Assembly: GCA_951406725.2 (NCBI GenBank)
Contig: OX597815.1
Location: 186,868,001-186,932,000 of the forward strand
Source: Octopus vulgaris
Lineage: Eukaryota
DNA length: 64,000 bases
Direction: 5' to 3'
Shown here: piece by piece, positions 1,301 through 62,399 of the stretch
Layout: each line of letters begins with the position of its first letter
How positions within the stretch are numbered: position 1 is the first letter of the stretch
Program-made: the position numbers and the translations under genes
Notes under the pieces: model-generated
Database searches by the model: none
What the model was told of the DNA's origin: nothing
The model's input: the letters and a program-made list of their open reading frames with translations, nothing else

Positions 1301-1638
1301 AGTTTTAAGGATGATGAGCAAAACATCCATGTTTCCAGAGATTAATTCTTCAAACACCCAAAGAATTCCTCTCAGTACATGGCTATGATGCTCCTCCACC
1401 TACTTCTGCTCGTGATCAGAGATGCGCATATCGTCAGCTGCTAAGGGACATGGTCAACTGGTTAAGGTCAAACAACTGACAAACAAATCTGTGGTATTGA
1501 GCAGAATATTTGCTGTAGCCTATCTTTTATACCAAGACAACAATGTACATGATAACACTTCCAATCAGTTAAGATCATAAGCTATGAGAGCCACTGACTG
1601 GTACCGCATCATTATTATTGTTGTTTTTGTTGTTACCG

Positions 1639-1641
<3 letters not shown>

Positions 1642-1705
<64 letters not shown>
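1642..1705. repeat. (ATT)n microsatellite
   Basis: Perfect trinucleotide run. Confidence 0.95.
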
Positions 1706-1706
<1 letters not shown>

Positions 1707-3098
1707 TCCGCCAAGGCCGACTTTGTCTTTCATCCTTCCAGGGTCGATAAAATAAGTACCAGTTGAGTATTGGGTCCGACTTACCCAACTCTCCTAAAAT
1801 TGCTGGCTTTGTGTCAAAACATGAAACTGTTGTTATTATAATAAAGTGGTGAGTAAGACGGATCCTTGGAATGTGGGACAAAATACCTAGTGGTGTTTCT
1901 TCCGGGACTTTACGATCTGAGCTCAATTCCTGTTGCTAAAATTAAGTACTTATCAAGCACTTGGTCAATGATATCAACTATCCCCCCACACACACACAAA
2001 ATTACTGCCTTGTGTCTAGATTAGAAAGAGTTATTATCATTGCCTACATCATTATTAGTATTACATTCTTAGCTATTGTACGTGTTTCTTTTAGCTCTAC
2101 CAGACGGTGGATTTTTACTTAATGAAACTATATGGAAAAACATTTTTAAAGCGGAACTTCGAAATAGAGAGACAATGCAAATTTAATTGATTGCATTAAT
2201 TCTTACGCGTTTGGATTTTTTTTTTAAAAAAACAAAAAAATACTTCAATTTGCGACAGAGTAATTATTCTCTTCTGATAGTCGTAAACAAACAAAGCAGT
2301 ATTTAAAAGCATCAAAAAAAATTCGCATGAAGACAAGTCTGTTTTTTTGCAGACAACAGACAGAAGCAAAAGGAAAAATGTATTTATGTTGCAAGTAACA
2401 AATAAGAATTTCCTGGCATAAAACAATTCTGAAGATTTTTTAAAGACTCGGTTAATGATAACAACAAGAGCGGCATTAGAATTAGACCCCGCGTAAATTT
2501 CGCGAAAGAAAATATTACAAGTACCATTTCGAGTAACTGGATTCTATGTCTGGATTATCCGTCGGAGAAAAAGTCTACTTGGAAAAGCTGCGTGATAAAG
2601 GACGATGCACCTTTGCCCCTTATTGAACAACGTTAAAGAGAAAATAATTTACCTCAGCATCTCGATAGACATTATGATTTTTATCATGCTTCGCAAAGAT
2701 TAATCACGAGAGGTTTTGATAAACGTGTGGAATAGCATATCCTCGGTCGCTTGAGGAAGATACAATGGAACAATGCGCGTAATTATTCAAAGCAAAAGGT
2801 AAAAGTTAAAAAAAGAAAACAGACAGACAAAGCTAGTGTGTTACGCAACTACCTACAAGCTAGTATCACAATATTGGTGGGGAACAGGCAACGCAAGAGT
2901 CAAAGTAAGTGATATTTATTAGTGACGACATTCTTATTTGGTGCGTTTCACTTTTGTGATGCAATACGGGCAGATTGTAAACGTCGAAATAAACAAACCA
3001 ACATAGGATTTGATGGAGACCATAGAGAAATTGCGGTACTGTTCCCTGTTGAGAGTACAGGAAATTGCAATGAAATATATGATACGGAGTAGATATCC

Positions 3099-3307
3099 TA
3101 TGAGGAGGTGCTGAAAACTTCCTGGCTTTGAGCAACAGAAAATACAGGAGGGTCAATTAATTTTAATTATGATTTTATTCAACATATATCACCTCTCAAA
3201 TTCACACACTTATTGCAGCGGTCCTTCAGCTTTTCTAAGCCCTATAAAAGAACTCAGAAGGTTGGGCGTCCAACCAGGCCTTTCGCGACACCCTTAAAGC
3301 CAGGAAC
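3099..3307. mobile_element. mariner-type MITE
   Basis: Terminal inverted repeat remnants TATGAGGAGGTGCTGAAAACTTCCTGGCTTT ... AAAGCCAGGAAC, starting at a TA. Confidence 0.6.
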
Positions 3308-4677
3308 ATATTACGTTTATATCAATAAGATCCTCTTGAGGGTTTCCTGTCCTGAGTAACTAGAAAAGCAGAGACAGTAACGGAACCAGTGGGTGTTGAA
3401 TATATTATCTTATTCAGCCTTATGATAATGACATAGCGTCTGTTTTAAGTCTATAAATTACAAGTTTCTCGGAGTGGAGGTTGTATTTTTTTATTGTTGG
3501 GAATTTCTTACTTTGGTCCATTGAAAGAGATTCTGTTCTTTGCTATTATTGAATTATTTCTGTCTTTATGGTTTCCTATTCTTAATTTTTCTTTCATTTC
3601 TCTTCATTTCTAGTTTTGTTCAAGTTATTTTGTTAGTTATACTCTGTAGATGTTCTAAGATTTCGGTTTGTTTGGTTTTGTACTTACTAGTTCTATCTGC
3701 GTTATTTACTTTCTCAATGGTTTTTCTGTGAGTCCATTTTTTTCTTCTGTTTTGTTACCTTTGGTTTCGTAATCTTTCTTTCTTTTAAATCTTCTATTTA
3801 CATTAATGATATTTCTTTCATTTTGAAAGCATATCTTTTTTAAGTTTACCATTCTTCCGAGGCTTTGCGTTACATTTAAATTCAAATTTCATACAAGTAC
3901 ATTGTCGTAGTTTAAGGGCGGTCGAAAGTCGTCAAATAAAAACATATTTCCCTCCAATCCATTCCTGAATTCTCTATTCGTTTTATTTGCAAGACTCGAA
4001 GAATAAATTCCGGCGCTTTGTTAAGATTGATATCATATTTGTCCAGATACCGACTTATATGCTTTGGGCGATGTCAAGTTTTGCACGCATGCGCCATTTA
4101 TCATTCAAAGTGCTCGTTCCCCTTTTCTTCACTTTAAGTTGAACGATACGTTACATATTTGTATAATGTATAATTGTTTTATACTGTGGTGAAGAACGGA
4201 ATCAGTTTACACGTGGTGTTAGATTGAATATCATGAACGTGTGTATTACATTAATCATTTGTGGTTATCAGTAATAAATTTTACAAGTGCTGCGTACGCA
4301 GTTTTCCTTCAATATTTTCGATATTTATTTCTATTTAATGGTGTTTTTCAATTACTGGATATTTCCCTGGGCTGTCAAGCAATTTGTTCATGATAAATGT
4401 CAAGTACCGGGGGTCGTTATGACTGACTAACGCCTTCTATTAAATTCATTATAGCCATGTACCTACAGTAGAAAGTTGATGTCCATAGATCAGTGAGGAA
4501 GGAGCGGTTAGAAGAATTGATGAGGTTCTTTCATTCTGAGGAGAAAAGAGCCTTAACAGGTCAACTTTGGATTCTTTCCGGCTTTGGATCATTTTACGAT
4601 AACTCAAATAAATAGCATCTAAGTATTTTTTGTCAATCAACTTGAATACATCCGCAACCAAACTGGATAAGTTTATA

Positions 4678-5105
4678 AGGCAGCAAGCTGGCAGAAATGT
4701 TAGCACGCCGGGCGAAATGCTTAGCGGTATTTCATCTGCCGCTACGTTCTGAATTCAAATTCCGCCGAGGTCGACTTTGCCTTTCATACTTTCGGGGTCG
4801 ATTAAATAAGTACCAGTTACGCACTGGGGTCGATGTAATCGACTTAATCTCTTTGTCTATCCTTGTTTGTCCCCTCTATGTTTAACCCCTTGTGGGCAGT
4901 AAAGAAATAAGAAACGTTAGCACGCCGGGCAAAATGCTTAGCGGTATTTCATCCGTCCTTACGTTCTGAGTTCAAATGCCACCAGGGTCGACTTTGCCTT
5001 TCATCCTTTCGGGGTCGATAAAATAAGTGCCAATTGAGGACCGGGTTCGATATAATCAACACGCCCTCTCCGAATCTGCTGACCTTGTGCCAAAATTTGA
5101 AACCG
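4678..5105 (+). mobile_element. SINE family A head-to-tail dimer
   Basis: Two consecutive copies of TTAGCACGCCGGGC...GTTCAAA...GCCTTTCAT...GGGGTCGAT. Confidence 0.8.
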
Positions 5106-19239: not shown

Positions 19240-19786
19240 AGGGACAAAATACTAAGTAGAGCTTTTCTTTTGGGGAAGAAGAGAAAGAAAAAAAACACAA
19301 GAGAAAGGTTCGAATTCCGATCAAAAGGAATCGTGAAAAAAAAAGTGGGGGTCGATCAATAGGGATCGTGTATCACAGAAATGTCAATGTATAAAGGGAA
19401 AACAGATTAAGTTTGTCCGTGGATAGAAAAGCCCACGAAAAAGACCACGGGAACCTTGGGCAATAGTGTCATGCAAAAAGAAAACACATGACAATAAGTG
19501 ACTCTCTTGTTTCCTTTCTTTTTTTTTTTTTGCTTCATAGGATTATGCTCAAGCTGGCTCTGTCATTCACACGTGCCATCCTTGCTACATTCATCCATCT
19601 TTTTTTGAAACATTCACTAGACAAAATTTCCCTCTCTACTCTCACCTTCCTCTTCAAGTGATACTTAAAGAAGTCGATGAGAAATTGACCAGAGAGGAAA
19701 GTGTTTGTCTCAAGACCTTTCAAGTGCGTCCACCATACACATTCTTTCGCCATAGTCACAAGTACGATGAAAATGGCATAGATAGA

Positions 19787-19790
<4 letters not shown>
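19240..19790 (-). mobile_element. Tx1/L1-like LINE 3' end
   Basis: [17 protein letters not shown]...CFKKRW then stop, followed by a UTR. Abuts a (GATA/GACA)n tract. Confidence 0.55.
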
Positions 19791-20325
<535 letters not shown>

Positions 20326-20627
20326 ACTGCATTTATTGAAACCTGATTGTGTGAATCGGTACTTAGAGTTTCTCATACTTTATCCTTAGGCGACTGAATT
20401 TGTGAAATTGCAAGCGTCTTTATATAAACATATCGATTATTGAAATTCGATCTGATGATACTGAAAACAGCTTAGGTAGTGCTAAATGGTTGCATGCGTG
20501 GGCGAGTGAATGTGGAGGCGAACATAAAAGAAGACGAGGCGGTGATAATAAGACAAACAAAGAAGGAAAGAAAGGAGCTAGAACAAAAAGGAAAGGACAT
20601 AGCGGGGGGGGGGGGGGGGAGAACACG

Positions 20628-21003
20628 AGAAGAAGAAGAAGAAGAAGAAGAAGAAGAAGAAGAAGAAGAAGAAGAACGGAATGAAGAAGAAGTAAAACGG
20701 AATGATGATGAAAAAGAAGAAGAAGAAGAAGAAATAAAACGGAATGAAGAAGAAGAAGAAGAAGAAAAACGGAATAAAGAAGAAGAAAAAGAAGAAAAAC
20801 GGAATAAAGAAGAAGAAGAAAAAGAAGAAAAAGAAGAAAAACGGAATAAAGAAGAAAAAGAAAAAGAAGAAGAAGAAGAAGTAAAAAGGAATAAAGAAGA
20901 AGAAAAACGGAATAAAGAAGAAGAAGAAGAAGAAGAAGTAAAAAGGAATGAAGAAGAAGAAGAAGAAAGGAAGAAGAAGAAGAAGAAAAACGGAATAAAG
21001 AAG

Positions 21004-21036
<33 letters not shown>

Positions 21037-21142
21037 AAAGGAATAAAGAAGAAGAAAAACGGAATAAAGAAGAAGAAGAAGAAGAAGAAGAAGTAAAAAG
21101 GAATGAAGAAGAAGAAGAAGAAGAAGAAGAAGAAGAAGAAGA
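20628..21142. repeat. (GAA)n-based compound repeat
   Basis: GAA runs punctuated by AAA(C/A)GGAAT. Confidence 0.9.
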
Positions 21143-21467
21143 GGGGGGCTAGGGACGAAAGAAAAGTAGAAAATGTAAAAAAGTGACGAGGGTAGATCTA
21201 AAGGATCGTCGATGTCTTTGAACTGACAAGAGAAAACCAGAAGTAGTTTAGTGAAGTGTGAAGATTTGGGGGTTTTTTATGATTTGTTTACTCGGCTCTT
21301 TTTGAAGATGGCGTGTGTCTTACGTTTTGATTAATTCCTTATTTTAAAAACAAGTAGGAGGACACCTGAAGTTGGATTTACTTTTGGTTTTTATCTAATT
21401 TTTATTTCTATGCTCAAAATGTTTGCTTCGTGGCATACGCACACATACATACATAAATACATACATA

Positions 21468-29477: not shown

Positions 29478-30221
29478 ATTATTTGCCTGTAGTGAAGACA
29501 AGAAAGAAGATTGACTATAGAGAAAGAGTTATTCTACCAGCATGTGCAATATGAACGACCTATGTCAGTTAATAAAAAGTAATATCCACTTTTCCAATTG
29601 CTTTCAGTAGAACCTTGTATGTCTGTCTATTTGTCCATATATCTATCTATTAATTCATTTGCTTACAGGAAAACTTCCACAGCTTTCTAAAAAAAAAGTT
29701 ACAGTTGACTTCTAAGAGAAACGACTACAAGTAACGGAAATTGGATTTGAAACATATGTAACATATATAAAACGTTATAAATTTCAGAACACATTTGTGG
29801 TCTTTTGTCAATGTGAGAAAACATTTTTACTTTTGTTGATGTAATTTGATCGGTAAACATCAGATCATATTACAAATAAAATATTAATCTTTAATCTTTC
29901 TAAAGTTATCGGTGTTGCCATTTTTTTTTTTTTAATTCTCCTGGTTTGATTAATAAATGTTGTTTATGTATCAAGGTAGATTCAGCGAGCTACACTCCAG
30001 TTTCTGGTCATATGTCAAGAATTTATGAAACCATTATTAATGGTGTTCCACGGTGTCAAAGATAGAATTTTGGGATTCAAATGTACCATAAATTAGCAGT
30101 AACCCATTTGGTAGTCTCTACGTCTTTCTTTAAGTTAAAGCTCGTCGGGTGAGCGCAAAGTTTTGTGTTGGATATGATAAAAGACATTTGAAGGGAGGAA
30201 AGCCAGCTGTTTTCATATAGT

Positions 30222-30460
30222 CTTTTACTCGTTTACGCTTTTATTCGTTTCAGTCATTTGACTGCAGTCATACTGGAGCACCACCTTAAGTCGAATAAAT
30301 CGAACCTAGGACTTATTCTTTGTAAGCCTAGTATTTATTCTTTTGGTCGAACCGCTAAGTGACGGGGACGTAAACACACCAGGATCGGTTGTTAAGCGAT
30401 GGTGGTGGACAAATACAGATACAAACAATAAATAACATAAATATATATATATATATATAT
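30222..30460 (-). mobile_element. 3' half of a SINE family B copy split by the PLE
   Basis: Reverse complement of the family B tail, ending in the internal (TA)n. Confidence 0.85.
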
Positions 30461-30470
30461 AACTTACTGC

Positions 30471-32816
30471 ATGAACCGAATTTATCCAACAACATTACCC
30501 TTCAACAAAAGAGTATACATCCCAAGACGTACTAATGACCACATGGAAGCACAGTTCACTATAGCTAGGACCAAACTTAGACAGATTTTAGGATTATACA
30601 TTAAGAGACAGAGACAGAATAAGACAGATGCCCAACAACTAGGGATTAAACCTGCATGTGGCCTACAGAAGCTCATTCAGCGCACGAGGAACGGAGAGGT
30701 GATATGCCTTCCCACGGATAAGTCCGGCAGGATGTCAATAGACAGCTTACCGAACTACATCCAGGCAATGCAACCTCATATCGCCAATACAAAAATAACA
30801 ACTGTACAGGCGCATGAGGAGAGAGAAAAGGTCCTCAATGCCCACATGATGATGTGGACAATTGTTCTGGGACCTCAGAAACGTACTGCAAAGAATTTCC
30901 AAGCCTGGAACAATGATATCCCGGCACTGTATGGACTTCGCAAGGACCATAAAGGTTTTACTGACCCTATAGCAGGACCACCAACAAGACCAGTCTGTGG
31001 AGCGAATATCGCTAGCAATTACAGAATCTCCTACTTCCTCTCAATGATCATACGCCCTATAATCAGGATGTCACCTGATGTGTGTGACAGCACAGAAGAT
31101 CTCCTAAGCAGGATCAGTGACTGTAACAAAACTTGTGACTTGACAGGATGTATAGTAGGTGGCATGGATGTGGTATCCCTATACCCATCGATTGACGTAG
31201 ATTTTGCAGTGGAGAAGTGCGTGGAGATGATCAACGAGAGCCAGGTGGAGTTCTGTAATGTCGACACAGAAGAACTGGGCCTCCTACTTAGACTGACATA
31301 TAATAGTGAATACTTAGATAAACATAATCTTAGTAGTTTCTGCCCCAGTAGATGTTTAAGAGGTAGACCGCCTACAATTACTTCTATGGCTAGGAAGACA
31401 CATATAGAAAGATGGCGCGGATGGACCAGAGCCATACGGAGCCCCGCAAATGTCCATCAGGTAAAGAAAATGATCGCACATGCACTAGGAGCTAGTATAA
31501 GAGTTACCCTAAAAGGCCACACATTTAAATTTAATAATAAAATATATGCCCAGGACGTGGGGGCAGCCATCGGTGTTAGTATCGCTGGTGATGTGGCCAA
31601 CCTCTTCATGGTATGGTGGGACAGAAGGCTTAAAGAATGCCTACTGCAGAAATCCATACTCGTAAACATGTACTCTCGCTATGTTGATGATATCAATATA
31701 GTAGTAAAGGCACCCCCACAAGAGAGTACTGTTGATATAGTAATAGAAACTAATACTATGGAGAGCATCCAGCAAATAGCTAACTCCATCCACCAGAGTA
31801 TTAAGGTCACAATAGACTACCCCACTAAACACCCCAACCATAGACTACCAGTACTAGACACTGAACTCTGGCTAGAAATTGTGAAAAATAAAACCCAAAT
31901 CCTTCATTCATACTATGCAAAACCTATGGCCTCAAAATACCTGATCCACCGGAACTCAGCCATTGCGGGCAATGCCAAATTCAATATTTTGATGGCAGAC
32001 CTCGTCAGAATAATGAGAAATGTGTCACGCATGTGCGAGCCTACAGAATTAAAGAGACACATACAGTATTTCATTCACCGCATGCAGTTCTCAGGTTACA
32101 GCCATAAAGAAAGGATCAGAGTATACAAAGGAGCCATGAAGAAATTTGATAATATATTATGTAATGATAGGAATGGGATTTGCCCACTCTATAGGAACAA
32201 GTCATGGAACACTATAGAAAGGACAAAAAAGAAAATAGGGAAGGCCAACTCTTGGTATGATAGCCATAAATACCAGAGTGTCATGTTCGTTGACACCACC
32301 CCTGGAGGTGAACTAGCGTACCGCTTTAGAAGGACCCTAGATAAACTTAAACTAAGAATTAAGGTTGTTGAAAAGCCAGGCAACCCTATCAGATCTATAA
32401 TTGGTAGAAGCTATCCTTTTAGTAGAACTCTCTGTACGGATAACTATTGCACTGTATGTAGATTTAGCCCACAAACGAACTGTAAAGCCAGAAATGTGGT
32501 CTATAGTATAAGATGTATAGAGGGACGATGCAGTAACAAGACAGTAACATACGTAGGGGAAACTGCAAGAAGCATTGGTGAGCGGGTGAATGAACATTGG
32601 AGACAACTCAAGGAAGGTAAAAGCTCATCGATTCTGTACCAACACGCCGAACAAGAACACGGGGGATCAATCAATAACATAGAGATTAAGATATTGTCAA
32701 CACATAGAACAGATGCAACAATTAGACAAATTACAGAAGCTACACATATAATAGAAAATAAACCTAGCCTGAATAGAAAACTAGAATGGAGCAATAGCGC
32801 ACACCACAACATATGA
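30471..32816 (+). CDS. PLE polyprotein: reverse transcriptase plus GIY-YIG endonuclease (781 aa)
   Basis: RT motifs PTDKSG, LYGLRKDHK, PTRPVC, DVVSLYPSI (A), QDVGAAIG (B'), RYVDDI (C), LPVLDT (E), YAKP. Cys linker CTDNYCTVC..C. EN motifs NVVYSIRC..C..YVGETARSIGERVNEH..YQH..RQITEA..SLN. The frame stays open upstream into the (TA)n, so the true start may be lost. Confidence 0.93.
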   Translation: MNRIYPTTLPFNKRVYIPRRTNDHMEAQFTIARTKLRQILGLYIKRQRQNKTDAQQLGIKPACGLQKLIQRTRNGEVICLPTDKSGRMSIDSLPNYIQAMQPHIANTKITTVQAHEEREKVLNAHMMMWTIVLGPQKRTAKNFQAWNNDIPALYGLRKDHKGFTDPIAGPPTRPVCGANIASNYRISYFLSMIIRPIIRMSPDVCDSTEDLLSRISDCNKTCDLTGCIVGGMDVVSLYPSIDVDFAVEKCVEMINESQVEFCNVDTEELGLLLRLTYNSEYLDKHNLSSFCPSRCLRGRPPTITSMARKTHIERWRGWTRAIRSPANVHQVKKMIAHALGASIRVTLKGHTFKFNNKIYAQDVGAAIGVSIAGDVANLFMVWWDRRLKECLLQKSILVNMYSRYVDDINIVVKAPPQESTVDIVIETNTMESIQQIANSIHQSIKVTIDYPTKHPNHRLPVLDTELWLEIVKNKTQILHSYYAKPMASKYLIHRNSAIAGNAKFNILMADLVRIMRNVSRMCEPTELKRHIQYFIHRMQFSGYSHKERIRVYKGAMKKFDNILCNDRNGICPLYRNKSWNTIERTKKKIGKANSWYDSHKYQSVMFVDTTPGGELAYRFRRTLDKLKLRIKVVEKPGNPIRSIIGRSYPFSRTLCTDNYCTVCRFSPQTNCKARNVVYSIRCIEGRCSNKTVTYVGETARSIGERVNEHWRQLKEGKSSSILYQHAEQEHGGSINNIEIKILSTHRTDATIRQITEATHIIENKPSLNRKLEWSNSAHHNI

Positions 32817-33336
32817 CAATAGTGGATCCTGCAAACATAATAAATACACAGGTAATTAAAGAAACAGAAATGAATATCTATATGTGTATGTATGTGTGTA
32901 TATGTGCATATATATGTATATGTATATGTATATGTATGTATATATATATATGTATATGTATGTGTATATGTATGTATATATATATATGTATATGTATATT
33001 CTTTTTTTTTTTTTTTTTTTTTTTTCGATTAGATTTATTATTATTATTAATAATATTGTTGTTATACATACATACAAGCATATGTAATGATAATAATGGG
33101 TGGATGTAAACACATGAACAAAATTAGAACAAAAGCAACAACAACAAAAACAAAATACAAATTACAAGAATGTATATAACCAGAAGATACAAATATTACA
33201 GGCATCCCCCACACACACTAAATAAACATAGACGCACATAGAGATATAAGCATGCGCAAATGAAGACATACAATAGAAATACAAAATGGCTGACGGTTAG
33301 TAAGGAGAGACACAAGTAAGTGAGAAGAAAACAAAG

Positions 33337-33380
33337 GACCACTGATGCGGTCACAGGAGTGTGACGAAAGAACTTTGGCC
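33337..33380 (+). ncRNA. Minimal type I hammerhead ribozyme variant 1
   Basis: GACCA-CTGATG(CG)-GTCACA GGAG TGTGAC-GAAA-GAAC-TT-TGGCC. 6-bp stem II, CCA/TGG stem I. Core differs from CUGANGA. Confidence 0.65.
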
Positions 33381-33556
33381 GAAATAAGATTAAGATTAAT
33401 GTAAAAAATAAATATCACTGAAGCAAAATAACACCAAATATATAGTGCGTGTGTTTTTATTGGCTAAACTGGCAATATGACCATTCCGAAATATAACAAT
33501 ATCTGTTTCAACACACGACTTCACATAAAAAAATCTTGCACAACAAATATTTAAAC

Positions 33557-33609
<53 letters not shown>

Positions 33610-33640
33610 CACACACTGTCGAAGCGTTCCTGTCACAATC

Positions 33641-33683
33641 TGAACCTGATGAATGCTTAAATGCAAGAAAGTATACTAGTTCA
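33641..33683 (+). ncRNA. Minimal type I hammerhead ribozyme variant 2
   Basis: TGAAC-CTGATGA-A TGC TTAAAT GCA A-GAAA-GTATAC-TA-GTTCA. 5-bp stem I, intact core boxes, palindromic stem III. Confidence 0.8.
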
Positions 33684-33839
33684 ATGAGAATAGACATTTA
33701 ATATTTAATTTTCAATATTTCATTTGTTCAGTAAGACGATCGATACTTCATTTCATTTCTTTCTTGCTATATATTCTATATCCTATATTAATATTATAAT
33801 ATAGATAAAGCATAAAACACAGAGTTGAAATTCCTTTGA

Positions 33840-33842
<3 letters not shown>

Positions 33843-33878
<36 letters not shown>

Positions 33879-33980
33879 GACGGGCTTCTTTCAGTTTCCG
33901 TCTACCAAATCCACTCACAAGGCTTTGGTCGGCCAGAGGCTATAGAAGAAGACACTTGCCTAAGGTGTCACGCAGTGGGA
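33843..33980 (-). mobile_element. 5' half of the split SINE family B copy
   Basis: (TA)n then CGACGGGCTTCTTTCAGTTTCCGTCTACCAAATCC, collinear with 30222-30460. Confidence 0.85.
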
Positions 33981-37399: not shown

Positions 37400-37608
37400 T
37401 TAACGGTTCGGCAAAAGAGACCGATAGAATAAGTACTAGGCTTACAAAGAATAAGTCCTGGGGTCGATTTGCTCGACTAAAGGCGGTGCTCCAGCATGGC
37501 CACAGTCAAATGACTGGAGCACCGCCTTTAGTCGAGCAAATCGACCCCAGGACTTATTCTTTGTAAGCCTAGTACTTATTCTATCGGTCTCTTTTGCCGA
37601 ACCGTTAA
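37400..37608. repeat. Perfect 95-bp inverted repeat with a 19-nt spacer
   Basis: Arms 37400-37494 and 37514-37608 are exact reverse complements, made of the SINE family B tail. Confidence 0.95.
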
Positions 37609-37650
37609 GTACCGGTTGAGAACTGGGATCGATGTAATCGATATATATAT

Positions 37651-37702
<52 letters not shown>

Positions 37703-37737
37703 ATCTATGTATGTAGGTATGTATGTATTTGGAGCCA

Positions 37738-39648
37738 TATCCTCGAACATAGAAATACCTTTTTCGATATACGCAAATGCTTGCTGCATTTTCTTAATGG
37801 TAAAGTGACGTGGCTCAGGTTCGACTTCCTCTTCTATATTTTGTTTCCCTTGTAGCTCTCTCAAATCCTCGTATATCAACGGCTGCTTGTCTTTTTCAAA
37901 TAAATCCGTGAAATCCTCCTGCTCCAAATCCATTTCCAGTTCTTTGCTCGGAGTCACCAACGTTTTCTTGATGGCAACAATATCAAACCCCTTAAAGCCA
38001 TTCACCAATTGCGGGCATAACTTCTTCCATACACCATTCATAGCCATGCTCTGTACATCATTCCATGCCACTGCTAAGTTCTCTAGAGTCTTGTAGATAT
38101 CGTATATCTTCCAAAAGTCACGAACTGTGATGGACTCATGAAGATCAGTTGCTGCTATTGCTTGCCGCAGCGTACGCTTCATATAGCAACGCTTGAAGAT
38201 AGCAATTAGTCCCTGATCCATTGGCTGCAGAAGAGACGTGGTGTTGGTAGGGAGGTATACGACGGTAACGTTGGGGTCAAAATCTACGATGCTTTCCGGA
38301 TGGCCAGGAGCATTATCTAAGATAAGTAAAACCCTTCTCCTAGCAGTACTTCTCTACTGCTGTGATAAAATGACTGAAGAATCAATCTTCAAAAACACCA
38401 ACAGTAACCCATGCTTTTGAATTAGCCATCCATACAAAAGGGAGAGATGCCTTGGGTATGTTCTTCAGGGCACGGGGGTTGTGTGCATGATACACAAGCA
38501 ATGGCTTTAACTTAAAATCTCTTGCACAATTACCTCCCAACAAAATGGTCACACGTTCTTTTGAGACCTTGTAGCCTGGAACAGTTTTCTCCTCCTTGGA
38601 AATGAATGAACGGTCAGGCAGTTTTTTCCAATACAATCCAGTTTCGTCCACGTTAAGAATTTGTTCAGAAAGAAACCCGTTTTCTTCGATGATTTTCTTT
38701 AATGCATAAGGAAAGTCCGCTGCTGCTTGTTCGTCAGCGGATGCACTTTCACCTTCTTAATGGAGTGATAACTTCTTCGCTCCTTAAATCTCATGAACAA
38801 TCCTTGACTTGCCTTGAACTCTACATCCTACTCATCTGGATATTTTTTTCTTCAGGTCCTCAAATAAAGACAGCGCTTTCTCTTGAATGATTTCTTGACT
38901 AATAGTAGCATGCTGACGATTCAACCTAACAAACGAAAGAGAAAGAAGACTTTCCATTTCTTCAAAGATTTTGCCTCTTATTGATGACAGTGTTCTTCAT
39001 CCCTGGGGCTTCAGATTTGATATGTGCTAAAATCTTGGCCTTATTTTGTACAATCGTCGATACAGTTGTCCGACTCATCCAAAAAGATCGTGTAATTGCT
39101 ACCACTTTTTCACGGCGTTTTATCATAGCCAGTTTATCTTCCGGCGTTATAGCATGACGCTTAGCATTTTCACTATGAATTTTCTTAGGAGCGGTGGGGG
39201 CAAAAAATAAAATCACAAATGAATGGAAATAAGAAAGTAGCCGATAAACATACATAAACCAGTCTGAATTCAAAACAATCGTGGGAATCACAAGTGACAA
39301 CGACGCCTAACGGTAGATATTGGAATTACAGTGCAATATGAGATCTGAAAGACGATAAACAAGACAGCACAGCTGATTTCATGACTTCGTTTACTAAGCT
39401 ACACAACTTTATGGTGTATATCTTAACATTTACTGTACAACTTTTGATATGATTTTATATGTTTTTATTCTTATTTATTGTACAGCAACATGATTTTATG
39501 TGCTCTTAACGGTTTTCTAGTGATTTTACAATTCCAATATTTGTGGCGGACAGACGTAAAGTCGAGTAAAATGACTCAACTTGATTTTTATTTTTCTATA
39601 TATTATTTTTGAAAACCGACATATAATCGAGAACGACTTAAGCCGAGG
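37738..39648 (-). pseudogene. Tigger/pogo DNA transposon remnant (HTH plus DDE_1 transposase)
   Basis: KRHAITPEDKLAMIKR..SRTTVSTI, NVDETGLYWKKLPDRSFI..KERVTILLGGN, QPMDQGLIAIFKRCY. Frameshifts and stops. TIR-like CGACTTAAGCCGAGGT near 39632-39648. Confidence 0.85.
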
Positions 39649-60456: not shown

Positions 60457-61129
60457 TAAAGCTAATCGGAGAGAATCTGCACAAAACTCGATTTGAAAGC
60501 GACTGAAAAACATTGTCGAACTAAAACGTTTCACTAAGAATATGTCACCTTCGAAAACAACAACAGCAACACCAACAACATCGACAAATGACAAAAATAC
60601 AAAATACGCTGTTGTTGTTGTTGTTTTTGTTGTACGTGACATAACAAGAAGATAAAGTTAAGAGAAAATTTGAACGAGGAACATGTCATATCTGATAAGC
60701 TGATATAGTGACGAAAGAGAAAGTGAACGTAGAAAAAAATTTTTTTTTGAAAGCAAGTTTTCAACATTTACCATTTCGTTAAATGCTCACACTTGTTGTT
60801 TTTTTTTTTTTAGAAGTCACTAAGCATTGTCAGGAATATTTGTTGTATTATTAATACGAATATGTTCCTAAACATACAATTCTTCGGTGTTTCACAGTAC
60901 ATCAAGATTTTCAAAACGAATTAATGGGGAAAACAAAGATATATATAAAAAAAAAATGTTTGAACTTGTTTCAAGGGAATTAATACACACCGCACACACA
61001 GACACACACATGCGCACTCAAACACACGCATACACATATACACACACACAAAGAGACAGACATACACAAAGTAATTCTATTTCAACAACTACAAAAGTTC
61101 TGTACATTTTTACATTACTTCGTTAACCA

Positions 61130-61920
61130 TAGACACACATATACATATTCAAACACAAACGTATATATATATATAAAATGTATATATAATGCTTGTATGC
61201 ATATACAGATAAATACATGTCTGCATAAATACCTACATATATGCATACGCACACACATACTTACATACATACACACACACACACACATACATACATACAT
61301 ATACACACACACATATATACATACATATCTGCATGCATGCATACACACACACATATGCATACATATATATACACACATGCATACACAGACACATATGCAT
61401 ACATATATATACACACATGCATACACACACATACATGTATACATACACATATACATATACAAACATGCATACACACATACAAACATACATATATACACAC
61501 ACATACATACAAGCATACACACATACATACACACACATACATACGCACATACACACATACATACATACATACATACATACATACATACATACATACATAC
61601 ATACATACAAGCATACACACATACATACACACACATACATACATACATACACACATACATACATACATACATACATACATACATACATACATACAAGCAT
61701 ACACATATACACACACACATACATACATACATACACACATACATACATACATACATACATACATACATACATACATACATACATACATACACACATACAT
61801 ACATACATACATACACAGGTATGCCTTAATTCTCTTTTGACAGACATACAAATTTGTCCCACAAACACACACACACACACATACACACACACACGTGCCC
61901 ACACACAGACACACAAACAT
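61130..61920. repeat. Compound (CATA)n/(CA)n microsatellite
   Basis: Source of the spurious HTY/MYVC ORFs. Confidence 0.95.
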
Positions 61921-62399
61921 ACTAAACTATTGATACACTGTACGTTGCTTCCAACATTTTTGTTTTGTTTTGTTTCTTTTTGTTTTGTTTTGTACTTTTT
62001 TTTTGCTTTGTTTTTCCTTGTTAGGTGTAAAAGTTAAGAATGTTAAAGCAGAAATTAATAAGAATTACTCTTTTATTCTTTTACTTGTTTCACTCATTTG
62101 ACTGCGGTCATGCTGGAGCACCACCTTTAGTCGAGCAAACATTGAATGCCTATGGGTATCCACCCGAGTCAAATAGAAATCAAAGGGATCCACAGACAAA
62201 AAGTAGCTGAGAACCAGTGTTCTACATAATATATATTTGCGTGGCTTGTAATGCTAGATCCTTTAGATTTTCATTTTGTATTTGTTTATATATGTTTTGA
62301 ACATTCACATAGCAGTTATTATTATAAGAATTATTTCTGTTTTCGAACATAAGCATTTAAAAAATATTCAATAACAACTGTGATAAGGCTAGCTATTCA

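Follow-up and report, generated by a model that had tools for sequence, protein, structure and literature searches.

The DNA discussed here is a 64-kb stretch of the Octopus vulgaris genome, at G000:C2:186868001-186932000 and called the window throughout, and the element of interest is a Penelope-like element (PLE) whose single open reading frame (ORF) encodes a reverse transcriptase (RT) followed by a C-terminal GIY-YIG endonuclease (EN). Between positions 30462 and 33559 of the forward strand there lies, very probably, a 5′-truncated and non-autonomous copy of a very young, high-copy O. vulgaris family of C-terminal-EN PLEs, set in a (TA)n microsatellite by target-primed reverse transcription that halted early. 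TA repeats bracket the copy on both sides, and it is nearly identical to at least 40 others in the genome. Its homology boundaries were set against 29 other copies, and the full unit of the family was defined on a contiguous long copy (L037); the genome searched comprises 2.8 Gb in 227 contigs. The features of the locus are listed below with the evidence for each, TRF being Tandem Repeats Finder and UTR untranslated region.

30437..30461, no strand: (AT)12.5, left over on the upstream side from the (TA)n target microsatellite (TRF and sequence).
30462..33559, + strand: 5′-truncated PLE copy, corresponding to unit positions ~1493/1494..4588 of the 4,588-bp unit (homology limits against 29 copies and against the full unit).
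30471..32816, + strand: 781-codon ORF and stop, starting at an internal Met, in the same frame as, and equal to, the C-terminal 62% of the 1,270–1,272-codon family ORF.
30909..32200, + strand: reverse transcriptase with fingers, palm and thumb, about aa 150–580 (predicted model, motifs, matches to structures of telomerase reverse transcriptase, TERT).
31254..31514, + strand: additional segment, aa ~265–351, folded with confidence in the model and lying between RT motifs A and B at the position of the telomerase insertion in fingers domain (IFD), kept by every relative examined (spacing, and predicted local distance difference test, pLDDT, >90).
32433..32495, + strand: zinc-finger-like linker C-X4-C-X2-C-X7-C-X4 immediately ahead of the GIY motif (VVY) (translation; kept in 26/26 aligned relatives).
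32490..32783, + strand: GIY-YIG endonuclease domain with CCHH (weak Pfam signal; I-TevI match, model residues 677–774).
32817..33502, + strand: 3′ UTR, the part forming pseudo-long terminal repeats (pseudo-LTRs) in longer insertions, with (ATGTAT)n at 32870-32999 and T24 at 33002-33025 (sequence and TRF).
33503..33559, + strand: optional tail of about 55 nt (comparison of 30 copies).
33558..33609, no strand: (TA)26, the downstream portion of the target microsatellite (TRF).

From stop to stop, the frame at 30441..32816 (+) counts 791 codons, and its first in-frame ATG, at 30471, leaves the 781 codons that the initial annotation had reported as free of stops. The motifs named there are also in place: the Asp of RT motif A (31167-31169) and the YVDD box (31680-31691) lie exactly where they had been put, and the C-terminal GIY-YIG domain can be read in the translation with VVY at 32496-32504 and YVG at 32550-32558, C685 and C690 between the two, then H712 and H728/H733. 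The first Cys of this CCHH set and both His are invariant in 26 aligned relatives, and the second Cys is variable. The Gln of RT motif B is aa 364, and a TDKSG sequence lies further upstream, at aa 84–88. Since RT and GIY-YIG follow each other in one ORF, with TERT and I-TevI fold matches in one chain, the assignment to EN-bearing PLEs stands, as does the proposed 5′ truncation without an upstream pseudo-LTR (boundaries below). Two details had to be revised: the element had been carried to 33842, about 285 bp into unrelated sequence beyond its actual end at ~33559, and the ORF had been called intact, which is right as to the open frame, whereas the real ORF is represented only by its 3′ 62%. 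The other coding transposons of the window had been described as fragmented; the 64 kb hold no other long ORF outside low-complexity sequence, and the next frame is a 303-aa DDE-transposase-like fragment.

In Pfam, both domain signals are weak and neither reaches its curated cut-off: RVT_1 scores 16.9 bits where 29.6 are required (E 0.0054), and GIY-YIG 18.5 bits where 22.6 are required (E 0.0025). The protein was therefore folded with a 122-sequence alignment. The resulting AlphaFold model of the window protein has a mean pLDDT of 93.7 and a pTM of 0.91. When it was compared with 48,161 representative chains of the Protein Data Bank (PDB) using VIA-align, the top four matches were all TERTs (6uso, 9swo, 6zdp and 7bg9, with Z of 14.5, 14.2, 14.0 and 12.3), which outrank the RTs of diversity-generating retroelements, LINE-1, retrons and R2 (Z 12.3 or less; LINE-1 11.4, R2 10.3). 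Judged by predicted structure only, the window RT is nearer to telomerase RT than to LINE RTs. In the same chain, model residues 677–774 match the I-TevI catalytic domain (Z 9.9, root-mean-square deviation 2.1 Å, 88/92 residues). By sequence, the PDB yielded nothing but a chance match (E 0.2). The distance from motif A to motif B is 128 aa in the window copy, and 117–141 aa in all 160 of the 160 relatives in which both motifs were present.

The full unit is 4,588 bp long. Units join directly head to tail, and the terminal one has ...AAACGTA as its last bases before (TA)n. The frame seen in the window continues uninterrupted further upstream in long copies, giving 1,312 codons from stop to stop; an ATG at unit position 30 sets the ORF at 1,270–1,272 codons, and another in-frame ATG occurs in the upstream pseudo-LTR. 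The window copy thus retains the C-terminal 784 in-frame codons and is without 488. Two components make up the missing part. The first consists of a region rich in helices and, after it, the block YGG..L.LPPKFA.Y....EK...K.RW, which is conserved in relatives of only 28–49% identity. The second is a low-complexity stretch of ~280 aa rich in Asn and Ser, reduced to 10–40 aa in relatives, which is also a frameshift hot spot: of the 34 loci in total that match the unit's initial 200 bp with at least 98% identity, 10 break at codons 263–333. At L037 this stretch occupies about 4050-4880, and the opposite strand is open there for 291 codons. The N-terminus of the full-length protein contains no GIY-YIG, and a Pfam search of the 1,309-aa protein found no family at E up to 0.1; the labels PF28514 (DUF8422) and PF26215 (HTH_animal) come from an atlas only and are absent from the Pfam copy searched. 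From these comparisons, the protein of the window copy is likely incomplete, any promoter situated upstream is likely missing, and the copy itself is probably non-autonomous.

How young is the family? All 40 scored DNA matches to 30462-32816, out of 2,552 first-look candidates, are 99–100% identical over the full 2,355 bp, and with a 200-bp probe from the RT core all 40 scored matches are 100% identical. Over the ORF of the 30 best copies the median pairwise p-distance is 0.33% (range 0–0.71%), some pairs showing zero differences over 2.3 kb, and the 781-codon stretch is open in 27 of the 30, the exceptions being L014, L023 and L029. Most of the variable columns are singletons (63/75). The singleton substitutions, 11 synonymous to 47 non-synonymous, show a pattern that reads as neutral decay; the variants common to two or more copies are 8 synonymous to 3 non-synonymous (Fisher p 0.00088 against the singletons), and the lineages that spawned copies therefore appear to have been under purifying selection. 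The complete ORF of 1,270–1,272 codons is present in 9 of the 34 loci that have the 5′ end of the unit, together with an upstream pseudo-LTR. These figures bear out the young and possibly active family of the initial annotation, and the search for copies that it had advised returned 2,552 first-look candidates, with near-identity in all 40 that were scored and copies with longer 5′ ends. With the calibration published for O. vulgaris, a Jukes–Cantor distance of 0.09 for about 25 My (PMC13282606), a pairwise distance of 0.33% would amount to some half a million years, an approximate value drawn from a sample that favours the youngest copies. Copies at 90–96% identity also exist in the genome, and the lineage is therefore an old resident and not a fresh arrival. 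On the sequence comparisons, the family has probably moved at some time in about the past million years, and may be mobile still.

The anatomy of the insertions was read from the same 34 loci. In 30 of them, unit position 1 is adjoined by position 4588 of a direct, 5′-truncated copy, which is the pseudo-LTR; in 21 of these 30 an inverted 5′-truncated copy in turn adjoins the pseudo-LTR, usually with a truncation point unlike that of the direct copy. The other four loci have an inverted copy next to position 1, which touches host DNA in none of the 34. At G000:C19:14371126-14386906 (L035, L036) there is a tandem array of 2.86 head-to-tail units, with inverted partial copies on its 5′ side. This arrangement of pseudo-LTRs and inverted copies matches that of PLEs as drawn in the legend to Fig. 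2 of Craig et al. (2021; PMC8557442). At the other end, 13 of the 30 compared copies (the window copy included) have the tail of about 55 nt, 16 are without it and one is ambiguous. The tail-less copies end ...AACAATAT, one of them with a variant ending, and 27 of the 30 copies adjoin TA-type repeats at the 3′ end. A matching optional tail is known from the Poseidon element of the anole, where in vitro work accounts for it by two neighbouring sites at which the RT starts (Frangieh et al., 2024; PMC11167929).

Sequence from the 3′ part of the element is also the more abundant. With 200-bp probes, candidate matches rise from 76 for the 5′ 200 bp to 858 for the RT core, and the summed contig depth increases about 50–90-fold from 30418 to 32683 in three DNA runs, a 3′ bias of the kind that incomplete reverse transcription should leave. 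When the 3′ UTR was probed with 200 bp (33330-33529), no candidates came up in the genome, not even the window copy; the search skips very common words, so that this is no sign of rarity.

A mechanism can be proposed from this anatomy. The GIY-YIG nuclease, guided by the Cys-rich linker, would nick TA repeats, and the 3′-OH thus exposed would prime cDNA synthesis at either of two start sites close to the 3′ terminus of the RNA, which would give copies with or without the tail. Templates exceeding one unit would produce the pseudo-LTRs, and priming from both nicked strands would produce the head-to-head inverted pairs. Premature termination would leave 5′-truncated copies, that of the window included.

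Several points weigh against this account and have to be set beside it. The 30-copy sample is made of the best-scoring 30 of 2,552 first-look candidates and is biased to young copies; the first-look candidate numbers are not copy numbers, and some of the 34 loci are two sides of one insertion. Recent activity of the family fits data that consist of DNA only, and no contig spanned the (TA)n junction, 30426-30473, in the read runs examined. None of the listed runs is recorded as RNA; run X11 did yield ORF contigs (713 nt, 0–2 differences), but its RNA label is a guess and a small DNA run could assemble a repeat in the same way. The twin-priming and multimer-template steps are deduced from insertion anatomy, and the N-terminal domain is taken to be essential from its conservation and by analogy with the anole Poseidon element, in which an extended N-terminal helix is predicted to mediate dimerisation (PMC11167929). 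Rfam found no canonical hammerhead ribozyme at E up to 1 on the window, or up to 5 on the full unit and its pseudo-LTR; in the literature, hammerheads are known from C-terminal-EN PLE clades and are usual in canonical ones, Naiads being without them. Lastly, the ORF is interrupted in 23 of the 34 loci, in 10 of them within the Asn/Ser-rich coding stretch, and one further locus has an in-frame internal deletion.

It is these interruptions, and the low-complexity frameshift hot spot behind them, that favour the most durable of the alternatives, namely that the family is young yet already extinct, after a single burst under about 1 My ago whose near-identical products no longer include a competent source. 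We consider this possible and on balance unlikely, given that nine loci keep the full ORF along with an upstream pseudo-LTR, that certain copies are pairwise identical over 2.3 kb, and that the changes defining subfamilies are mostly synonymous, which points to successive functional sources. In addition, run X6, from a differently labelled organism, holds element pieces with 0 differences at 65–230 times the depth of the unique flank, the flank itself showing 9 substitutions and 8 gaps over 415 nt.

A second alternative concerns the window copy itself, which could be complete and autonomous, the ORF from the ATG at 30471 being the real gene and 30462 the real 5′ end. The frame is indeed open, the ATG stands 10 nt from the boundary, the set of RT and EN motifs is full and, set against the window, the homology of every copy seems to begin at 30461. 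This common start is only apparent and arises because the other copies were compared with a truncated one. Upstream of 30461 the other 29 copies share sequence that is absent from the window; 11 of the 30 extend 1,492 nt further, to unit position 1, and the remaining 19, which include the window copy, break off at differing positions. The window copy therefore lacks 1,492 nt of the 4,588-nt unit, and with them the 488 codons over which the frame continues, including the domain conserved at 28–49% identity. Sequence inspection and the comparison with 29 copies revealed neither a pseudo-LTR upstream of it nor an inverted partner. Of these 19, whose truncation falls in the first 1.5 kb, an inverted copy adjoins 14 (15 by eye), and only the window copy and one other adjoin TA-type host repeats directly. 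The 3′ end falls at ~33557-33559, where (TA)26 starts, and beyond ~33615 the window copy has no sequence in common with any other copy; base 30461 and the final two bases (TA) of the copy are indistinguishable from microsatellite. A complete and autonomous window copy is thus very improbable.

That the locus is a domesticated host gene for a co-opted RT-EN protein, as a long intact frame amid decayed repeats might suggest, is practically out of the question in view of the hundreds to thousands of dispersed matches, the neutral-like private substitutions (11 synonymous to 47 non-synonymous), the TA-repeat brackets with transposon-type termini and variable 5′ truncation, and the private non-synonymous changes V109I and S231G carried by the window copy, which differs from the commonest letter at 9 ORF sites (E363V being common to two other copies too).

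The reading of the locus as a truncated member of a young C-terminal-EN family leads to a further question: to which PLE clade does this family belong? Eight clades are distinguished in a mid-2026 preprint, and comparisons with published PLE motifs were made by eye on the printed alignments of the PMC8557442 supplement (Figs S1, S2 and S7). Relatives of the octopus protein are numerous, with 318 clusters at E of 1e-30 or less among 7,294 at 1e-3 or less. The closest one outside Octopus is 47–49% identical, and the named relatives come from a jellyfish and a sea cucumber. Common to all 26 aligned relatives are TDKSG in place of DKG, the N-terminal domain and a long motif A–B spacing of about 128 aa; by eye, the spacing in supplement Fig. 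S1 is about 60 aa in canonical PLEs and about 115 aa in TERTs. The strings TDKSG, LRKDHK and PFNKR are absent from the supplement text of Craig et al., a weak negative, that text covering selected canonical references only and its long lines being cut.

Three assignments can be set aside. The Hydra clade shares with the octopus family a cephalopod host (Hydra-1_Obim of Octopus bimaculoides, 2,507 bp, (TA)n), a C-terminal EN, TA insertion and an N-terminal RW motif. As described in PMC8557442, however, its members have no CCHH, a CxCX5C linker, DKT, a YRDD-type motif, a length under 3 kb and canonical hammerheads, whereas the octopus family has CCHH, CX4CxxC, DKS, YVDD, 4.6 kb and no hammerhead found. 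It thus departs from the clade in all four defining traits (CCHH loss, CxCX5C, DKT, <3 kb), and is unlike the printed Hydra-1_Obim protein. Naiad/Chlamys elements have an N-terminal GIY-YIG and a CxC motif, and the octopus EN is C-terminal. Penelope/Poseidon elements have no zinc linker, which is present here and kept in 26/26 relatives. One member of that clade, PAc, the Poseidon of Anolis carolinensis, does resemble the octopus family in its tandem and pseudo-LTR layout, its optional tail and its N-terminal helical region (PMC11167929); it differs, in the same source, by clade, by the absence of the zinc linker, by a tail of 30–40 bp against about 55 nt, and by a hammerhead at the junction of pseudo-LTR and ORF.

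Neptune and Nematis come closer. Like the octopus family, Neptune has a C-terminal EN, CX2-5CxxC, CCHH and a TA bias hypothesised to depend on the linker (Craig et al., 2021; PMC8557442), but the two printed sequences have about 25–30 aa more between CxxC and GIY (printed Naiad linkers are likewise longer), and Neptune carries DKGG, an LPKIHK block and normal A–B spacing, in which the octopus family is otherwise. Nematis has the C-terminal GIY-YIG with CCHH and the YGL.K.HK block in common with the family (PMC8557442), whose linker spacing is, by eye, that of the printed Nematis_C4 (C-X4-C-X2-C-X7-C-X4-GIY). Unlike Nematis in the same printed material, the octopus family has TDKSG rather than DKGG, an A–B spacing of ~128 rather than about 60 aa, a large N-terminal domain that is conserved, no hammerhead of canonical type found, and marine-invertebrate hosts. 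The DKS motif and the 128-aa spacing argue against simple membership of Nematis, and on the sequence comparisons the family may be either a divergent lineage resembling Nematis or part of an unnamed clade.

The absence of a hammerhead, which enters into this comparison, was also sought with a strict-core descriptor, which gave 0 matches on both strands of 8.7 kb; no canonical form was found in the full unit, the pseudo-LTR or the inverted copy. The unit may contain a degenerate or permuted hammerhead. A hammerhead-like near-core at ~33341-33369 in the 3′ UTR was rejected as a ribozyme (C replaces A9, there is an extra base, and the fold is not significant), Rfam "miRNA" matches were driven by microsatellites and below cut-offs, and the tail gave no fold signal (z +1.1).

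Only as a tentative proposal, then, and one more doubtful than probable, can the octopus family be regarded as the tip of a large unnamed clade of marine-invertebrate C-terminal-EN PLEs, characterised by TDKSG, a short Nematis-like zinc linker, the N-terminal domain, no canonical hammerhead, and a well-folded insertion of ~65 aa between motifs A and B at the IFD site. If it were true, an IFD-like element would not be confined to the N-terminal-EN Naiad/Chlamys branch, which bears on the relation between PLEs and telomerase; were the insertion homologous to the telomerase IFD and the group a separate clade, the family would be a data point for that question.

Novelty, which on the view of the initial annotation near-identity to an already described family would remove, is weakened at the level of the class: for O. 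vulgaris, PLE families classed as "recently active" have been reported to number 31, with insertions of near-full length numbering 336 (Genome Biol Evol 2026, PMC13282606). Full-length copies of the family described here would pass the criteria of that study, which admit at most 2% divergence and require at least 90% of the length. Its section 7 and Table 1 give counts only, with no family description, clade or protein anatomy in those parts. The finding therefore identifies, correctly, a young element of a class already known and, at class level, already reported in this genome; its sole potentially new aspect is the clade question. What the family offers is a single, very young set of dozens of near-identical insertions, and a clean cephalopod example of PLE insertion anatomy, with pseudo-LTRs, head-to-head pairs with independent truncations, multi-unit arrays, two 3′ termini and strict TA targeting. 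It lends itself to testing how PLE reverse transcription is initiated according to the in vitro model.

The element also leaves its mark on gene annotation. Dozens of O. vulgaris models named "Hypothetical predicted protein" are fragments of this PLE (clusters of P0051, P0123 and P0124). In the same 90% cluster are XP_029654103.2 (O. sinensis) and CAI9741621.1 and CAI9741622.1 (O. vulgaris), named heparan-alpha-glucosaminide N-acetyltransferase(-like), which are likely chimeric or mis-named annotations. The gene annotation of O. vulgaris needs masking of PLE fragments.

Some other sequences of the window and its surroundings deserve mention. Contigs of runs X2, X5 and X11 join 30581 to 31581 and 31621 to 31757 at low depth, which suggests an internally deleted derivative of the family. 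Directly upstream of the target TA repeat, at 30212-30417, stands a repeat resembling a short interspersed element, with summed contig depth in the hundred-thousands to millions in all four runs and with many variant joints and loose ends; it is among the most abundant repeats of the O. vulgaris genome. The 303-aa frame mentioned above, at 37442..38353 (-), is a fragment resembling the C-terminal part of a DDE transposase of pogo/Tigger type, and runs into a (CA/TA) microsatellite. The long "ORFs" on both strands at 19710-21276 and 60984-62037 are artefacts of microsatellite and low-complexity sequence. Downstream of the element, at 33843-33980, a second (AT)17 tract is followed by a dispersed repeat that also lies beside copies L012 and L013, at 76–90% identity.

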